Below, one piece after another: positions 3,679-57,107 of a DNA stretch of 64,000 nt. The first letter of the stretch is position 1; each line of letters opens with the position of its first letter. A program made the translations under genes and the position numbers. The DNA lies in assembly GCA_934120265.1 (NCBI GenBank), contig CAKOTU010000004.1:285-64284 (forward strand), written 5' to 3'. The notes beneath the pieces are model-generated. The model did not search any database, was not told the origin of the DNA, and saw only the letters and a list, made by a program, of their open reading frames with translations. The DNA comes from an uncultured Bacilli bacterium (GTDB taxonomy: Bacteria > Bacillota_I > Bacilli_A > RF39 > UBA660).

Positions 3679-3823
3679 GTTGAACCTTTATGGATTTATA
3701 AAACAGAAAGAAGTGGTATTATAAGTACAATATTTTAGTGAAAGCTGTATTATGTCTATATGTTTATAATAAATAAAAAGGGGTATAATTAGAATGTATA
3801 ATAAAGAGAGGAGTAAGAAATAT

Positions 3824-5674
3824 ATGAAAAAGAAAGGATTTACTTTAATAGAGTTATTAGCAGTAATAGTAGTACTAGCAATAATAGCGCTAATCGCAAC
3901 ACCAATAGTAACAAGAGTAATAAATTCTAGTAAGGATTCTGCTAATAAAATAAGTGCAAGTAATTTTGCTAGTGAGGCTAATAAGTATGTAATAGAAGAA
4001 AGACTAAGTGGGAATATAAAGAATGGAAATATTTTTAATGAAGTGTCTAAAAGAATGAATGGTAAGAAACCTACTTCGGGAGTAGTTTATGCGGATGACA
4101 ATGGGAATATCGCTTTAGCTTTAGTATTTGATGATAAATGTTATACAAAGGAATACGGTAGTGATGAAATAAAAACAACTGACATTAATGAATGTCATGC
4201 CCCAGTAGATTATTTAGCACTTGGAAATACAGAGAATGATACAGAAGCAACATTCTTTAATGGACCTATCAAAAAAAGTAGTGTTGAAAAAATAGTGTTT
4301 GTAAATAGTAATCTTGTTCCAACAGATGCAATAGGAAAATGGAATGCAAGTGCAAGTGGTGAAGGAGATGTAGTTGCTTGGTACAAAGATGAAGATAAAA
4401 ATAACTTATACGAAGTATATATAGGTGGAAAAGACGGAGTAAAAGCTAATCCTAACTCATACAAATTATTTAATTATTTTACAAACTTAGTAAGTATAGA
4501 TTTAAAATATCTTGATACATCAAGCGTTATAGATATGTCTTTAATGTTTAATGATTGTTTAAATTTGACTACACTTAATTTAAGTAATTTTGATACATCA
4601 AGTGTTACAACTATGGCAGGTATGTTTCAGAACTGCTCCAAATTAATTACACTAGATTTAAGTAATTTTGATACTTCAAATGTTGTAAATATGAGAAATA
4701 TGTTTGCTTGGTGTTCAAATTTAAATGCCTTAGATTTAAGCAACTTTGACACGTCAAACGTTACTACTATGTATAGTATGTTTCAACTATGTTCAAACTT
4801 AACAACATTAGATGTAAGCCATTTTAATACATCAAACGTTACGAATATGTCATTTATGTTTAGCAAATGTTCAAGCTTAACAACATTAGATGTAAGTAAT
4901 TTTGATACATCAAACGTTACGAGTATGAAAGCTATGTTTCAACTATGTTCAAGTTTAACAACACTAGATGTAAGTAATTTTAATACATTGATGGTAACCG
5001 ATATGTCATATATGTTTAGCAAATGCTCAAGCTTAACAACGTTAGATGTAAGTAATTTTGACACCTCAAAGGTAACCAATATGGGATATATGTTTAATGA
5101 ATGCTCAAATTTGACAACATTAGATGTAAGCAATTTTGATACATCCAAAGTAACTGATATATCTCGTATGTTTCAAGGTTGTTCAAAATTAACCTATTTA
5201 GATGTAAGCAACTTTGATACATCGAATGTTACCAATATGCGTACTATGTTTCAAAAGTGTTCAAAATTAACTCAATTAGATGTAAGCAACTTTGATACAT
5301 CAAAAGTAACAGATATGGCTTATATGTTTTATGGATGTTCAAATTTAATAACATTAAACATAAGAGGCTTTAACACAACAAAAGTAACCGATATGAGTTA
5401 TATGTTTGAAAATTGTTCAAGGTTAACTAATTTAGATTTGAGTAGTTTTGAAACTAGTAAGTTACAAAATACGGAGCACATGTTTAATGGAAGTTCAAAA
5501 TTAGCAAATATTAATTTTTCAAAAGCAACATTTAACGCTGTAACTAAATATGATAAGATGTTTGGTGGATGTGGATTAATTAGTATTACAGTAAAAGATG
5601 ACGATGCAAAAACATTTATTGATGCTAGATTAAAAGATTCAAGTATTAATATTGAAGCAACAAAACAAAGCTAG
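3824..5674 (+). CDS. Modular prepilin-type protein: class III signal peptide, ~130-aa pilin-like head, 13 BspA/DUF285-type leucine-rich repeats
   Basis: MKKKGFTLIELLAVIVVLAIIALIATP. RBS gagaggag lies 10 nt before the ATG at 3824; the track start at 3794 has no RBS. The 25-aa periodic unit is LDVSNFDTSNVTNMxxMFxxCSxLTT. Confidence 0.85.
   Translation: MKKKGFTLIELLAVIVVLAIIALIATPIVTRVINSSKDSANKISASNFASEANKYVIEERLSGNIKNGNIFNEVSKRMNGKKPTSGVVYADDNGNIALALVFDDKCYTKEYGSDEIKTTDINECHAPVDYLALGNTENDTEATFFNGPIKKSSVEKIVFVNSNLVPTDAIGKWNASASGEGDVVAWYKDEDKNNLYEVYIGGKDGVKANPNSYKLFNYFTNLVSIDLKYLDTSSVIDMSLMFNDCLNLTTLNLSNFDTSSVTTMAGMFQNCSKLITLDLSNFDTSNVVNMRNMFAWCSNLNALDLSNFDTSNVTTMYSMFQLCSNLTTLDVSHFNTSNVTNMSFMFSKCSSLTTLDVSNFDTSNVTSMKAMFQLCSSLTTLDVSNFNTLMVTDMSYMFSKCSSLTTLDVSNFDTSKVTNMGYMFNECSNLTTLDVSNFDTSKVTDISRMFQGCSKLTYLDVSNFDTSNVTNMRTMFQKCSKLTQLDVSNFDTSKVTDMAYMFYGCSNLITLNIRGFNTTKVTDMSYMFENCSRLTNLDLSSFETSKLQNTEHMFNGSSKLANINFSKATFNAVTKYDKMFGGCGLISITVKDDDAKTFIDARLKDSSINIEATKQS
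4480..5520 (+). repeat. 13 in-frame ~75-bp LRR units (coordinates approximate)
   Basis: I counted 13 [NHGS]F[DNE]T[ST]xV motifs at 25-aa spacing. Confidence 0.8.
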
Positions 5675-8479: not shown

Positions 8480-9365
8480 AATTCTTTTTAGAGATATAAG
8501 AGATGCATTTAAAAGTGTCTTCAGGAACTTTTCTCTTTCAGTAGCGTCAATTTCTTGTATAACAATAACATTATTAGTAGTTGCTATTGCTTTCATCCTT
8601 TCTGAAAATGTTAATAATTTTGCAAATATTGTAGAAAAAGATGTTACAATTGTTGCTTTTATTGATAACAGTGCTAAACAAGAAGATTTAGAACAAATAA
8701 AAAATAAAATAAATGAGTTAGATAATATTGAAGAGGTAAATTTCGAATCAAGAACACAAATAATGGATGATATGAAAGCTTCTTCAGAAGTATTTAATAA
8801 TATTATGGAAAACTATACAGAAGATGATACTCCTGTTCAAGATACATACTTAATAAAAGTAAAAGATATTGATAAAATTGGTGATACTGCTAATCAAATT
8901 AAAGAAATAGAATTAGTAAGTAGTGTTAAGTATGGAGAAGGAATGGTTGATCAACTAATATCTGTATTTGATGTTGTTAGAAAAATAAGTATTATTGTAG
9001 TAGCCGCATTAATTTTGGTAACAGCGTTCCTAATTGCCAATACAATTAAAATTACTATTTTTTCAAGAAAAAGAGAAATTTCAATTATGCGTCTAGTAGG
9101 AGCTTCTAATATAAATATTAAAATACCATTTATTTTTGAGGGATTATTCTTAGGATTGTTAGGTTCAATAATTCCAGTACTTGCAACAACTTTTGGATAT
9201 GTTAGCTTATACAAACATTTTGGTGGACAATTATTCTCACCATTTATACGTTTAATAACTCCAGAACCATTTATATACGAGGTATCATTATTATTAGTAA
9301 TAATTGGTATGGTTGTTGGTATGTTTGGTAGTGTTAGAGCCGTTAAGAAACATTTGAAGATATAA
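8466..9365 (+). CDS. ftsX: Cell division permease-like protein FtsX
   Basis: N-terminal TM helix, a periplasmic-type domain, then 3 C-terminal TM helices. Overlaps ftsE by 14 nt. Confidence 0.85.
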   Translation: MKVFRILFRDIRDAFKSVFRNFSLSVASISCITITLLVVAIAFILSENVNNFANIVEKDVTIVAFIDNSAKQEDLEQIKNKINELDNIEEVNFESRTQIMDDMKASSEVFNNIMENYTEDDTPVQDTYLIKVKDIDKIGDTANQIKEIELVSSVKYGEGMVDQLISVFDVVRKISIIVVAALILVTAFLIANTIKITIFSRKREISIMRLVGASNINIKIPFIFEGLFLGLLGSIIPVLATTFGYVSLYKHFGGQLFSPFIRLITPEPFIYEVSLLLVIIGMVVGMFGSVRAVKKHLKI

Positions 9366-9381
9366 TTAAAATTATCAGTGT

Positions 9382-9413
9382 AAAGGTACAATTATTTGTA
9401 CCTTTTTCTTTTT
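9382..9413 (+). terminator. Intrinsic terminator after ftsX
   Basis: aaaggtaca-attattt-gtaccttt followed by ttctttt. Confidence 0.7.
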
Positions 9414-9419
9414 GAAACA

Positions 9420-9610
9420 TTGACAATAATTAATATTAAAAGGTATAATAAAAACAGTAAGGGTAGTGATAGTATGGTTAAAGAGATAAATAAAAATTTA
9501 ACTCAAAACCCGACATGGGGGGGGTATTTAATCATACTATAAAATTAAATAATAAAGAAAACACAAAGTTTCTAGACTTTTTAATAGTCTAGATTTCTCT
9601 GTGTTTTTTT
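9420..9610 (+). promoter_or_regulatory. Leader cassette copy 2 (G8 tract)
   Basis: TTGACA(9420)-18 nt-TATAAT(9444). Mini-ORF 9474-9542 encodes MVKEINKNLTQNPTWGGYLIIL. G-run 9517-9524. Terminator 9561-9610. Only ~52 nt separate the terminator from the ATG, and I see no second promoter. Confidence 0.7.
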
Positions 9611-9662
9611 GTTGTCCCTTTACTAAGTAAAGTAAATCTAAATAAAAGGAGGAGGAAATATT

Positions 9663-11438
9663 ATGAAAAATGAAAAAGGTTTTACTTTAATAGAGTTATT
9701 AGCAGTAATAGTAGTACTAGCAATAATAGCGCTAATCGCAACACCAATAGTAACAAGAGTAATAAATTCTAGTAAGGATTCTGCTAATAAAATAAGTGCA
9801 AGTAATTTTGCTAGTGAGGCTAATAAGTATGTAATAGAAGAAAGACTAAGTGGGAATATAAAGAATGGAAATATTTTTAATGAAGTGTCTAAAAGAATGA
9901 ATGGTAAGAAACCTACTTCGGGAGTAGTTTATGCGGATGACAATGGGAATATCGCTTTAGCTTTAGTATTTGATGATAAATGTTATACAAAGGAATACGG
10001 TAGTGATGAAATAAAAACAACTGACATTAATGAATGTCATGCCCCAGTAGATTATTTAGCACTTGGAAATACAGAGAATGATACAGAAGCAACATTCTTT
10101 AATGGACCTATCAAAAAAAGTAGTGTTGAAAAAATAGTGTTTGTAAATAGTAATCTTGTTCCAACAGATGCAATAGGAAAATGGAATGCAAGTGCAAGTG
10201 GTGAAGGAGATGTAGTTGCATGGTATAAAGATGAAGATAATAATAACTTATACGAAGTATATATAGGTGGAAAAGGTGGAGTAAAAGCTAATCCTAATTC
10301 TACTAAATTATTTAATTATTTTACAAACTTAGTAAGTATAGATTTTAAATATCTTGATACATCAAGTGTTACAAGTATGCAAGCAATGTTTCAGGACTGC
10401 TTTAAATTAACAACATTAGACTTAAGCGGTTTTGATACATCAAAAGTAACCGATATGGGTGGAATGTTTAATGATTGTTTAAATTTAACTACACTAGATG
10501 TAAGCAGTTTTAATACTTCAAACGTTACAAGCATGCGAGCTATGTTTCAAAAGTGTTCGAAACTAACTGCTTTGGATGTAAGCCATTTTGATACATCGAA
10601 TGTTACAAGTATGAGATATATGTTTAATAAATGCTCAAGTTTGACAATATTAGATGTAAGTCATTTTAATACATCAAATGTTACAAGTATGCAAGGAATG
10701 TTTGCCTGCTGTTCAAGTTTAACAACACTAGATGTGAGTCGTTTTAATACTTCAAACGTTACAAGCATGCGAGCTATGTTTGAACTTTGTTCAAATTTAA
10801 CAACATTAGATGTGAGTAATTTTGATACATCAGAGGTAACTAATATGACGTTTATGTTCAGTCAATGTTCAAGTTTAACAATATTAGATGTAAGCAACTT
10901 TGATACATCGAATGTTACAAATATGCATACTATGTTTCAGGACTGTTCTAAATTAAATGAATTAGATGTAAGTAACTTTAATACGTCAAGGGTAACTGAT
11001 ATGGGTGGTATGTTCAGTTTCTTAATAAATATTAAATCATTAGATGTTTCTCATTTTGATACATCAAATGTAACCAATATGAAATCTATGTTTAATGAAT
11101 GCAATAATTTGGAATCTTTAGATTTAAAAAATTTTAGTACAGGATTAGTAACAGATATGAGTTATATGTTTGAAAATTGTTATAAGTTGACTGATTTAGA
11201 TTTGAGTAGTTTTGAAACTAGTAAGTTACAAAATACGGAGCACATGTTTAATGGAAGTTCAAAATTAGCAACAATCAATTTCTCAAAAGCAACATTTAAC
11301 GCTATAACTAAATATGATAAGATGTTTGGTGGATGTGGACTGACTAGTATTACAGTAAAAGATGATGATGCAAAAACATTTATTGATGCTAGACTAAAAG
11401 ATTCAAGTATTAATATTGAAGCAACAAAGGTAAGCTAG
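9663..11438 (+). CDS. Modular prepilin-type protein, paralog of 3824-5674, with 12 BspA/DUF285-type LRR units
   Basis: MKNEKGFTLIELLAVIVVLAIIALIATP with RBS aaggaggagg. Nt 9681-10219 are identical to 3839-4377. The 3' ~290 nt are also near-identical. Confidence 0.85.
   Translation: MKNEKGFTLIELLAVIVVLAIIALIATPIVTRVINSSKDSANKISASNFASEANKYVIEERLSGNIKNGNIFNEVSKRMNGKKPTSGVVYADDNGNIALALVFDDKCYTKEYGSDEIKTTDINECHAPVDYLALGNTENDTEATFFNGPIKKSSVEKIVFVNSNLVPTDAIGKWNASASGEGDVVAWYKDEDNNNLYEVYIGGKGGVKANPNSTKLFNYFTNLVSIDFKYLDTSSVTSMQAMFQDCFKLTTLDLSGFDTSKVTDMGGMFNDCLNLTTLDVSSFNTSNVTSMRAMFQKCSKLTALDVSHFDTSNVTSMRYMFNKCSSLTILDVSHFNTSNVTSMQGMFACCSSLTTLDVSRFNTSNVTSMRAMFELCSNLTTLDVSNFDTSEVTNMTFMFSQCSSLTILDVSNFDTSNVTNMHTMFQDCSKLNELDVSNFNTSRVTDMGGMFSFLINIKSLDVSHFDTSNVTNMKSMFNECNNLESLDLKNFSTGLVTDMSYMFENCYKLTDLDLSSFETSKLQNTEHMFNGSSKLATINFSKATFNAITKYDKMFGGCGLTSITVKDDDAKTFIDARLKDSSINIEATKVS
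10322..11285 (+). repeat. 12 in-frame ~75-bp LRR units (coordinates approximate)
   Basis: I counted 12 F[DNSE]T[ST]xV motifs, one unit (25 aa) fewer than the paralog. Confidence 0.8.
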
Positions 11439-18591: not shown

Positions 18592-18812
18592 ATAAAAACT
18601 TTGAACTTGAGGAGTAAACTAAAGCGTTTTAAAGAGAGTCTATGGTTGGTGGAAATAGATAAATTAATTGGTTGAAGGTAGCAAGCCAGTTGAATATCTA
18701 AGTAAATAGGATATTACGTATATTATGCGTTAAATAATTAAGGTGTAGAAATACATAAATTAAGGTGGTACCACGTAAACTCACGTCCTTATCTAGGATG
18801 TGAGTTTTTTAT
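18592..18812 (+). promoter_or_regulatory. T-box leader controlling valS
   Basis: Promoter TTGACA(18556)-18-TATAAT(18580). AGAGAG plus distal loop GGTTGGTGGAA. F-box-like GCGTTAA. T-box AAGGTGGTACCACG. Terminator actcacgtcct/aggatgtgagt plus tttttt. The likely specifier is GUA within gaaGGUAGc, but the register is ambiguous. Confidence 0.85.
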
Positions 18813-26701: not shown

Positions 26702-26833
26702 GTTGACCTTTATAGGAAAGGAGTTGTTGTATAAGTACATAAAAATGCCAAAAACATGTATTATGGCTGGATGTTTATTATGAACAAAACAGGGTATAAT
26801 TAAAGTATAAAGTAAATAAGGAGGTAAGAAAAG

Positions 26834-34096: not shown

Positions 34097-34228
34097 ATGT
34101 GTACCTTTATAGGAAAGAAGTTGTTGTATAAGTACATAAATGTGTCGAAAACATGTATTATGACTAGATGTTTATAATAAACAAAATAGGGTATAATTAA
34201 AATGTAAATCATAAGGGAGGTAAAAAAG

Positions 34229-56889: not shown

Positions 56890-57107
56890 ATATTAAAAGA
56901 CAAACGAAGAGAGTAGTAATAATAAATTATGTTTAGAGAAGAAGTGGTTGGTGAAAACTTCTAATAAAATATTATGAACTTGCTTTTCTAGTTGCTTATA
57001 GCCGTAGTTCTGCGTTAAAGATTTGAGAGTGTAATAAAATATTATGAAATAAGGTGGTACCGCGATTAATCGTCCTTATATTTATAATATTTTTGTTTTT
57101 TAAGGAG
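56890..57107 (+). promoter_or_regulatory. T-box leader (Leu, specifier CUU) upstream of a small membrane ORF and leuS
   Basis: Promoter TTGAAT(56855)-17-TATAAT(56878). GAAGAGAG, AGAGA bulge, distal loop GGTTGGTGAAA, specifier context atGAA-CTT-g, F-box-like GCGTTAA, T-box AAGGTGGTACCGCG. No canonical terminator is present. Confidence 0.8.

Follow-up and report, generated by a model that had tools for sequence, protein, structure and literature searches.

Positions 9420-9662 of the window, which is the whole 64,000-nucleotide stretch of DNA analysed, probably act as a phase-variable attenuator with a leader ORF, like that of S. gallolyticus pil1, and control the pilin-like gene at 9663-11438, as judged from the sequence features described below. 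An earlier note on this DNA had proposed that the cassette is an attenuator; it overlooked the translated-looking ORF with a G8 tract that the cassette contains, and with it the likely control logic, in which the G tract in the leader ORF would decide whether a ribosome enters the terminator. The features of the region are as follows.

9382-9413, plus strand: intrinsic terminator of the ftsE-ftsX operon, a 10-bp hairpin (9382-9405) followed by the T-rich tail TTCTTTTTGA
9420-9449, plus strand: leader promoter, TTGACA (9420-9425), 18 nt, TATAAT (9444-9449), a 12/12 match
9459-9470, plus strand: Shine-Dalgarno-like stretch AAGGGTAGTGAT of the leader ORF, with AAGG 10 nt before the ATG
9469-9540, plus strand: P1 hairpin of 14 bp, in which the 5' arm (9469-9482, holding the ATG) pairs with 9527-9540
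9474-9542, plus strand: putative leader ORF of 22 codons, MVKEINKNLTQNPTWGGYLIIL plus stop, ending 15 nt before the terminator stem with the G8 tract
9517-9524, plus strand: G8 homopolymer inside the leader ORF, the proposed slippage site
9558-9610, plus strand: intrinsic terminator of the leader, comprising a hairpin in two parts, with an A.C mismatch, and a run of U7
9611-9662, plus strand: short spacer or 5'-UTR of 52 nt, with a strong Shine-Dalgarno sequence (GGAGGAGG, 9648-9655) and no promoter-like element
9663-11438, plus strand: gene under the proposed control, whose 591-aa product carries a prepilin-type N-terminal methylation signal (PF07963) and DUF285/LRR (PF03382)

In the proposed mechanism, RNA polymerase would start at the strong leader promoter, near 9456, and a ribosome would load on the nascent RNA at the leader ATG (9474) before the 3' arm of P1 exists, early loading being required because the completed P1 sequesters the start codon. 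The length of the G tract (9517-9524) would fix the downstream reading frame. Two of the frames would stop 12-29 nt short of the hairpin, which would then form and leave most transcripts at ~155 nt, an OFF or low state; the third would run on into the hairpin and reach its stop only in the loop or the 3' half, so that the leading ribosome covers the 5' half, no terminator fold arises, transcription crosses the 52 nt and the gene is ON. Slipped-strand mispairing when the G tract is replicated would flip the state at random, in a heritable and reversible way, and at the cassette in question (copy 2) G8 would be the near-stop OFF frame and one additional G the ON frame. The module may have three output levels, namely far-stop OFF, near-stop intermediate and ON, and P1 may limit translation to the pioneer ribosome trailing the polymerase.

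The start of the leader RNA is predicted near 9456, from a promoter that was the sole perfect match within 9000-10000 in a promoter scan and that is kept in the other cassettes; the leader promoter with TTGACA at 9420 in the earlier note is this 12/12 match. The terminator that the same note had assigned to ftsX was also found (hairpin 9382-9405 and T-rich tail), and it shields the leader from transcription coming from upstream. The leader ORF is preceded by a conserved AAGG...GTGAT stretch in which the AAGG is invariant or nearly so among 57 aligned cassettes. The structural genes have stronger Shine-Dalgarno sequences than this ORF, which counts against the model.

The behaviour of the reading frame also suggests translation. 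The segment between the arms of P1 varies freely and the ORF is always kept open: over 57 distinct variable segments there are no stops in frame 0, 118 in frame +1 and 29 in frame +2. In all four sequence families compared (G000, the host genome, and G003, G078 and G133), exactly one of the three post-tract frames reaches the terminator. In this read-through frame the stop comes 2-38 nt beyond the first paired terminator base; the other two frames end 12-34 nt short of the hairpin. The OFF stops of the cassette (12-29 nt) are nearer to the hairpin than those of S. gallolyticus (28-39 nt). At the copy-2 locus G9 gives the read-through frame, and G8 and G10 stop early, G10 at ~24 nt from the stem; with the G8 present in the window the ORF stop falls at 9540-9542, 15 nt before the first paired terminator base. 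By ribosome geometry the G8 of the window thus predicts OFF or low expression. The margin is a few nucleotides, and since in S. gallolyticus the clear OFF states stop at least 28 nt (28-39 nt) before the hairpin and a stop immediately upstream of it is ON (PMC3894217), G8 may be an intermediate state. We infer that the leader ORF is probably translated and that ribosome occupancy would block termination.

Loss of the tract goes with a particular frame. Among the cassettes of four congeners, the read-through frame was found in 13 of 17 with a tract of G6 or shorter vs 10 of 50 with G7 or longer (Fisher p = 5e-5 for frame against tract loss, a value that is overstated as paralogues and orthologues are related). 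A gene unable to switch appears to be kept only when it is locked ON, a bias that is expected if read-through is the sole route of expression. The tract-bearing cassettes are mostly in the G9 OFF state, with the ON frame in 0/9 and 0/9 cassettes of genomes G001 and G005, respectively, and this prevalence could also fit a fixed low read-through design.

Length alleles of the G tract were collected from the ftsX-lon locus, which was pulled from other gut metagenomes via exact FtsX variants and flanking-gene protein look-ups; a copy-2-specific pattern gave no match in JGI metagenome contigs. The alleles are assembly consensus sequences from different samples and say nothing on heterogeneity within a population. 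The copy-2 locus has G8 in the window and in one sample, G9 in five samples and G10 in two. Outside the tract these copy-2-type leaders differ by at most 2 SNPs, G9 and G10 occurring on the same haplotype and the G8 background being one SNP away. The copy-3 locus has G9, G9, G10, G11 and G12 in five samples, in leaders that are nearly identical apart from the tract, and copy 4, an interrupted tract (GGTGGGG) that serves as a control, is identical in six samples. At the copy-1 locus the tract is G9 in 7/7 samples, so switching is not visibly frequent everywhere and consensus variation depends on the locus. G or C runs of at least 7 nt number 24 in the host genome, 20 of them in leaders, 4 in promoter spacers and 0 in coding sequence. 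The pattern points to the G tract as a mutable site, and we infer that switching would take place within populations.

The same tract could instead be a fixed, non-heritable dial, at which polymerase slippage or ribosomal frameshifting gives a constant small read-through fraction in each cell. Most cassettes do share the modal G9, the copy-1 locus is constant as noted, and the rarity of the GGG codon (6% of Gly codons) together with tRNA-Gly(UCC), the sole Gly tRNA found among 30 tRNAs, would favour pausing or slippage on a GGG run. We nevertheless consider this explanation unlikely, because the length alleles exist at the DNA level at two loci, on the same haplotype, and because tract-less cassettes are mostly in the long frame (13/17), which indicates that the frame and not slippage is selected. 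Such a dial could coexist with DNA-level phase variation and would not replace it.

The leader RNA (9456-9610) has a predicted folding energy of -43.2 kcal/mol (z = -5.7 vs shuffles). Its terminator is formed by a lower stem (9558-9568 with 9597-9607), an upper stem (9571-9577 with 9587-9593) and the U-run (9604-9610). In the cassette alignment 93.5% of the terminator pair cells hold standard pairs vs 36-49% with slid partners, stems 2 and 3 show compensatory changes among paralogues, and the U-run is 5-8 nt long; the helix sequence is wholly different yet complementary in G003, G078 and G133. These changes indicate that the terminator hairpin is under structural selection. A search of the genome for a Rho RNA-binding domain found none. 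Under constrained folding the terminator persists with the P1 5' arm masked or free and with a ribosome footprint at the G8 stop, and it is lost solely with a ribosome over its 5' half, at the ON stop.

The A.C mismatch reported in the earlier note is real (ACACAAAG against CTCTGTGT) and costs ~3.7 kcal/mol, but the terminator is not notably weak: copy 2 has -20.7 kcal/mol vs -24.4 kcal/mol with the mismatch removed, which places it in the middle of the family range (-16.2 to -24.6 kcal/mol). The mismatch is fixed in all strains of the copy-2 haplotype. The idea that it is a designed leak was rejected on account of this mid-range stability and its nature as a haplotype SNP.

P1 is paired in 94.6% of cells, with only one-sided changes within the genus, and its arms in G078 have a different sequence with complementarity retained. 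Its 3' arm begins directly after the G tract, which P1 encloses. A role of P1 as a DNA-inversion repeat was rejected because the arms lie ~45 nt apart and the changes preserve RNA pairing, including G.U. Conservation of P1 and its enclosure of the tract would suit a trans-acting factor (a protein, sRNA or metabolite) that binds the P1/G-tract region and governs termination, the ORF and tract being incidental. The G10-G12 tract of G133, predicted to pair with the C/U-rich stretch CUCUUCCC just upstream of the leader ATG, is in line with such a factor as well, and may mean that the tract also has a structural role there. This explanation is slightly less probable still than a fixed dial. The leader has no match in Rfam 15 at gathering score, and a permissive search (E up to 10) returned only chance-level hits in 9300-9800 (E >= 0.28); no alternative antiterminator appeared in the constrained folds, and there is no pairing of the 2:3 type. 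The loop of P1 is free to vary, yet its ORF is always open, and the frame logic is kept in four lineages; both stand against an incidental ORF.

Dependence of the gene on the leader promoter, and thereby on the attenuator, was assessed from the spacers between terminator and gene. Spacers were scanned for promoters at the tool threshold of 9/12 and in an additional relaxed scan at 8/12, and were searched for TAnAAT hexamers. For copy 2 the earlier note had given a spacer of 52 nt up to the ATG at 9663 and had seen no TATAAT-like box in it; both statements hold, as 9611-9662 has no promoter-like site at either threshold and no TAnAAT hexamer. Copy 2 is no oddity in this respect. The host genome has 24 cassettes, each lying immediately 5' of a prepilin-type gene and in the same orientation, and these comprise 12 with short spacers (42-53 nt), 11 with long spacers (97-145 nt) and 1 at a contig end, so that the short form recurs as a class of its own and is no isolated deletion. 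Of the 34 short spacers in four congeners, 33 are free of any promoter-like match, and a TAnAAT hexamer occurs in 1/34 short vs 17/17 long spacers, the long ones having only a poor -35. The distance from terminator to gene in the diverged cassettes is 32 nt in G003, ~25 nt in G078 and 19 nt in G133; spacers of 19-32 nt are too short for a promoter plus 5'-UTR, which leaves the leader promoter via the hairpin as the sole route there.

These spacers support the view that transcription of the gene at 9663 relies on the leader promoter and on read-through of the hairpin. All in-silico tests agree with the passage of transcription of 9663-11438 through the hairpin that the earlier note had proposed, but its wording that this must be so is too strong. 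The cassette could be read instead as an independent gene for a ~155-nt sRNA or a 17-40-aa peptide, with the 9663 gene using an unrecognised promoter, and it does have its own strong promoter and terminator and, in 11 copies, a further conserved TATAAT block before the gene, but this is very improbable and the least likely reading, given that 24/24 cassettes are co-oriented directly upstream of a gene, that short spacers of 19-53 nt carry no -10-like box, and that the post-tract peptide is dictated by the RNA stems and changes with the frame. The choice of an attenuator over an independent small gene in the earlier note is supported by the same co-orientation 5' of prepilin-type genes and by the short, promoter-less spacers.

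The closest known system is that of the pil1 and pil3 loci of S. gallolyticus, in which out-of-frame changes in a leader repeat move the stop into the terminator and raise transcription in a translation-dependent manner (PMC3894217). In both systems one promoter precedes a leader ORF that has a ribosome-binding site of its own and encloses a slippage-prone repeat, an intrinsic terminator lies between the leader and a surface gene, and the stop shifts into the hairpin with the frame; in S. gallolyticus, as here, the products are pili or adhesins on the surface of a Gram-positive bacterium associated with the gut. At the sequence level all the marks of the pil1 type are present in the cassette, namely the promoter, the open ORF, the variable repeat, the terminator and the stop shift. 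The repeat is a G8-G12 homopolymer here vs 13-23 GCAGA pentamers in S. gallolyticus, the cassettes number 24 per 1-Mb genome vs two loci, and the cargo consists of type IV prepilin-type proteins vs sortase pili. Unlike S. gallolyticus, the cassette has P1 over the leader start codon. The S. gallolyticus switch has been shown by experiment; that of the cassette is predicted from its sequence.

Ribosome-coupled attenuation is also known from pyrBI and rph-pyrE of E. coli, where termination is prevented only if a ribosome closely follows the polymerase into the hairpin. The coupling there senses UTP-dependent polymerase pausing and involves no antiterminator hairpin, and the rph-1 frameshift of K-12, a fixed laboratory mutation, lowers expression of the downstream gene through an early translation stop. 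The cassette is similar in being, by the proposed mechanism, ribosome-coupled with no antiterminator, and differs in its tract, which would be reversible. Attenuators of the trp/his/thr type do not fit the region, as constrained folding gave no antiterminator hairpin to compete with the terminator, the products of the downstream genes are surface proteins, and GGG in the tract is the only repeated codon. In cwpV of Clostridioides difficile a recombinase-driven DNA inversion of an invertible element creates or removes a leader terminator; there too, as proposed here, the 5' leader of a surface gene holds an intrinsic terminator that sets ON or OFF, and cwpV has neither a leader ORF nor a repeat tract.

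Homopolymer contingency loci include the poly-G genes of Campylobacter, pilC and opc of Neisseria, and the poly-A tract of the Mycoplasma hyorhinis vlp promoter. The cassette resembles these in its run of ~8-12 nt, its low-GC genome, its association with surface-protein genes and the variation of run length among strains. The classical tract lies in the structural gene or in the -35/-10 spacer; the tract of the cassette belongs to a separate ORF further upstream and would act via a terminator. A promoter-spacer switch of the vlp/opc type is not what is found at copy 2, where 68 nt separate the -10 box from the tract 3' of it; four other loci in the genome do have a promoter-spacer tract of that type. 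The homopolymer version of a leader-ORF/terminator switch had no description in the literature searched. What appears to be new here is the homopolymer, the multi-copy use in 24 cassettes, the type IV prepilin-type cargo and the placement of P1 over the start codon; the combination of slippage with ribosome-coupled attenuation has been shown experimentally in one organism only, with a different repeat.

The promoter-spacer tracts of this group of genomes consist of G7-G10 between a TTGACA -35 and a TATAAT -10 (e.g. TTGACAAATGCATAT-G9-TATAAT) and occur in the host genome G000 at C1:54479-54488, C5:58026-58032, C8:49813-49821 and C9:9852-9860, and also in L060 and L063, which represent the ftsX-lon locus of other strains. 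The genes that follow encode more prepilin-type proteins and, in one case, another membrane protein. Some strains have this design 3' of ftsX in place of the leader cassette, after a retained leader promoter.

The host genome is 1.0 Mb in size (27% GC, 93.7% complete) and has ~50 genes with the prepilin-type methylation motif, one prepilin peptidase and T2SSE-type ATPases. The sister species G003 retains the promoter, the ORF, a G9-G11 tract and P1, and its terminator sequence has been replaced but is complementary. A covariance model built from the 57 cassettes and searched against 150 genomes of the family recovered the same architecture in two further genera, G078 and G133. The cassettes of G078 precede pilin-like genes, and at the G133 loci L120 and L125 the cassette lies before a non-pilin secreted protein (MKYLKKYYLLILL...), for which a Pfam scan gave nothing significant.

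At the copy-2 locus the module, consisting of the leader and the 591-aa gene (window 9406 to ~11455), shows presence/absence polymorphism. Five metagenome contigs have lon directly after ftsX, with ~38 nt of filler, and in other strains the same site is occupied by a 375-aa pilin-like gene or by a 538-aa gene behind a long-spacer cassette. On its left side the module begins just after the ftsX terminator hairpin, and module-less strains diverge right after ...ACCTTT.

A broader reading, for and against which we see equal weight, is that this portable module individually controls about half of the ~50 prepilin-type genes and, together with the promoter-spacer G tracts, yields a combinatorial surface coat that is shuffled at random; the module would then represent a general class of contingency switch, so far without a description, among the uncultured Bacilli of the gut, found again with unrelated sequences in three genera or more and before non-pilin secreted proteins as well. 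If true, a small uncultured gut bacterium varies dozens of adhesin-like surface proteins singly, and one compact switch joins homopolymer slippage with ribosome-coupled attenuation. Promoter-less copies such as copy 2 would be the cleanest natural test objects, as their expression should track the length of the G tract alone. For annotation, the ~155-nt units would not be called as sRNA or peptide genes.

The protein encoded by 9663-11438 has 26-aa repeats, which correspond to 78-nt repeats in the DNA. The paralogues at 3794-5674 and 9663-11438 (DUF285/LRR) have long identical 5' blocks and 78-nt repeat arrays, and a third paralogue (G000 C6:44342) has the same N-terminus; the blocks common to the paralogues suggest recent gene conversion among cassette-linked genes. 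The contigs L033, L048, L049, L056-L058, L066 and L142-L144 end in the conserved 5' part of the leader or in the G tract, which indicates that the multi-copy cassette breaks assemblies and that copy numbers from metagenome-assembled genomes are lower bounds.

The 'second promoter' of the other copies in the earlier note proved to be a conserved -10 box only, with no recognisable -35. This long-spacer block, seen in the window at 3679-3793, 26702-26815 and 34097-34210, contains the perfectly conserved GGGTATAAT with an inverted repeat (GTACAT...ATGTAT) upstream; the promoter scan makes no call there, and no acceptable -35 was found that would make the TATAAT block of long spacers a sigma-70 promoter. 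The block could be an activator-dependent promoter or an operator. In G001, at the ftsX-lon locus of a sister species (L098), a deletion extends from the leader -35 box halfway into the G tract (GTGAAATAT|GGGGGTATATTTAATC); the terminator is spared, as is the long spacer with the TATAAT box in it, which makes the locus a natural test of whether the second block alone drives expression. Elsewhere in the window, two T-box leaders exceed the gathering threshold of Rfam, at 18592-18793 (118 bits) and 56900-57080 (106 bits), upstream of the genes at 18800 and 57116, respectively.
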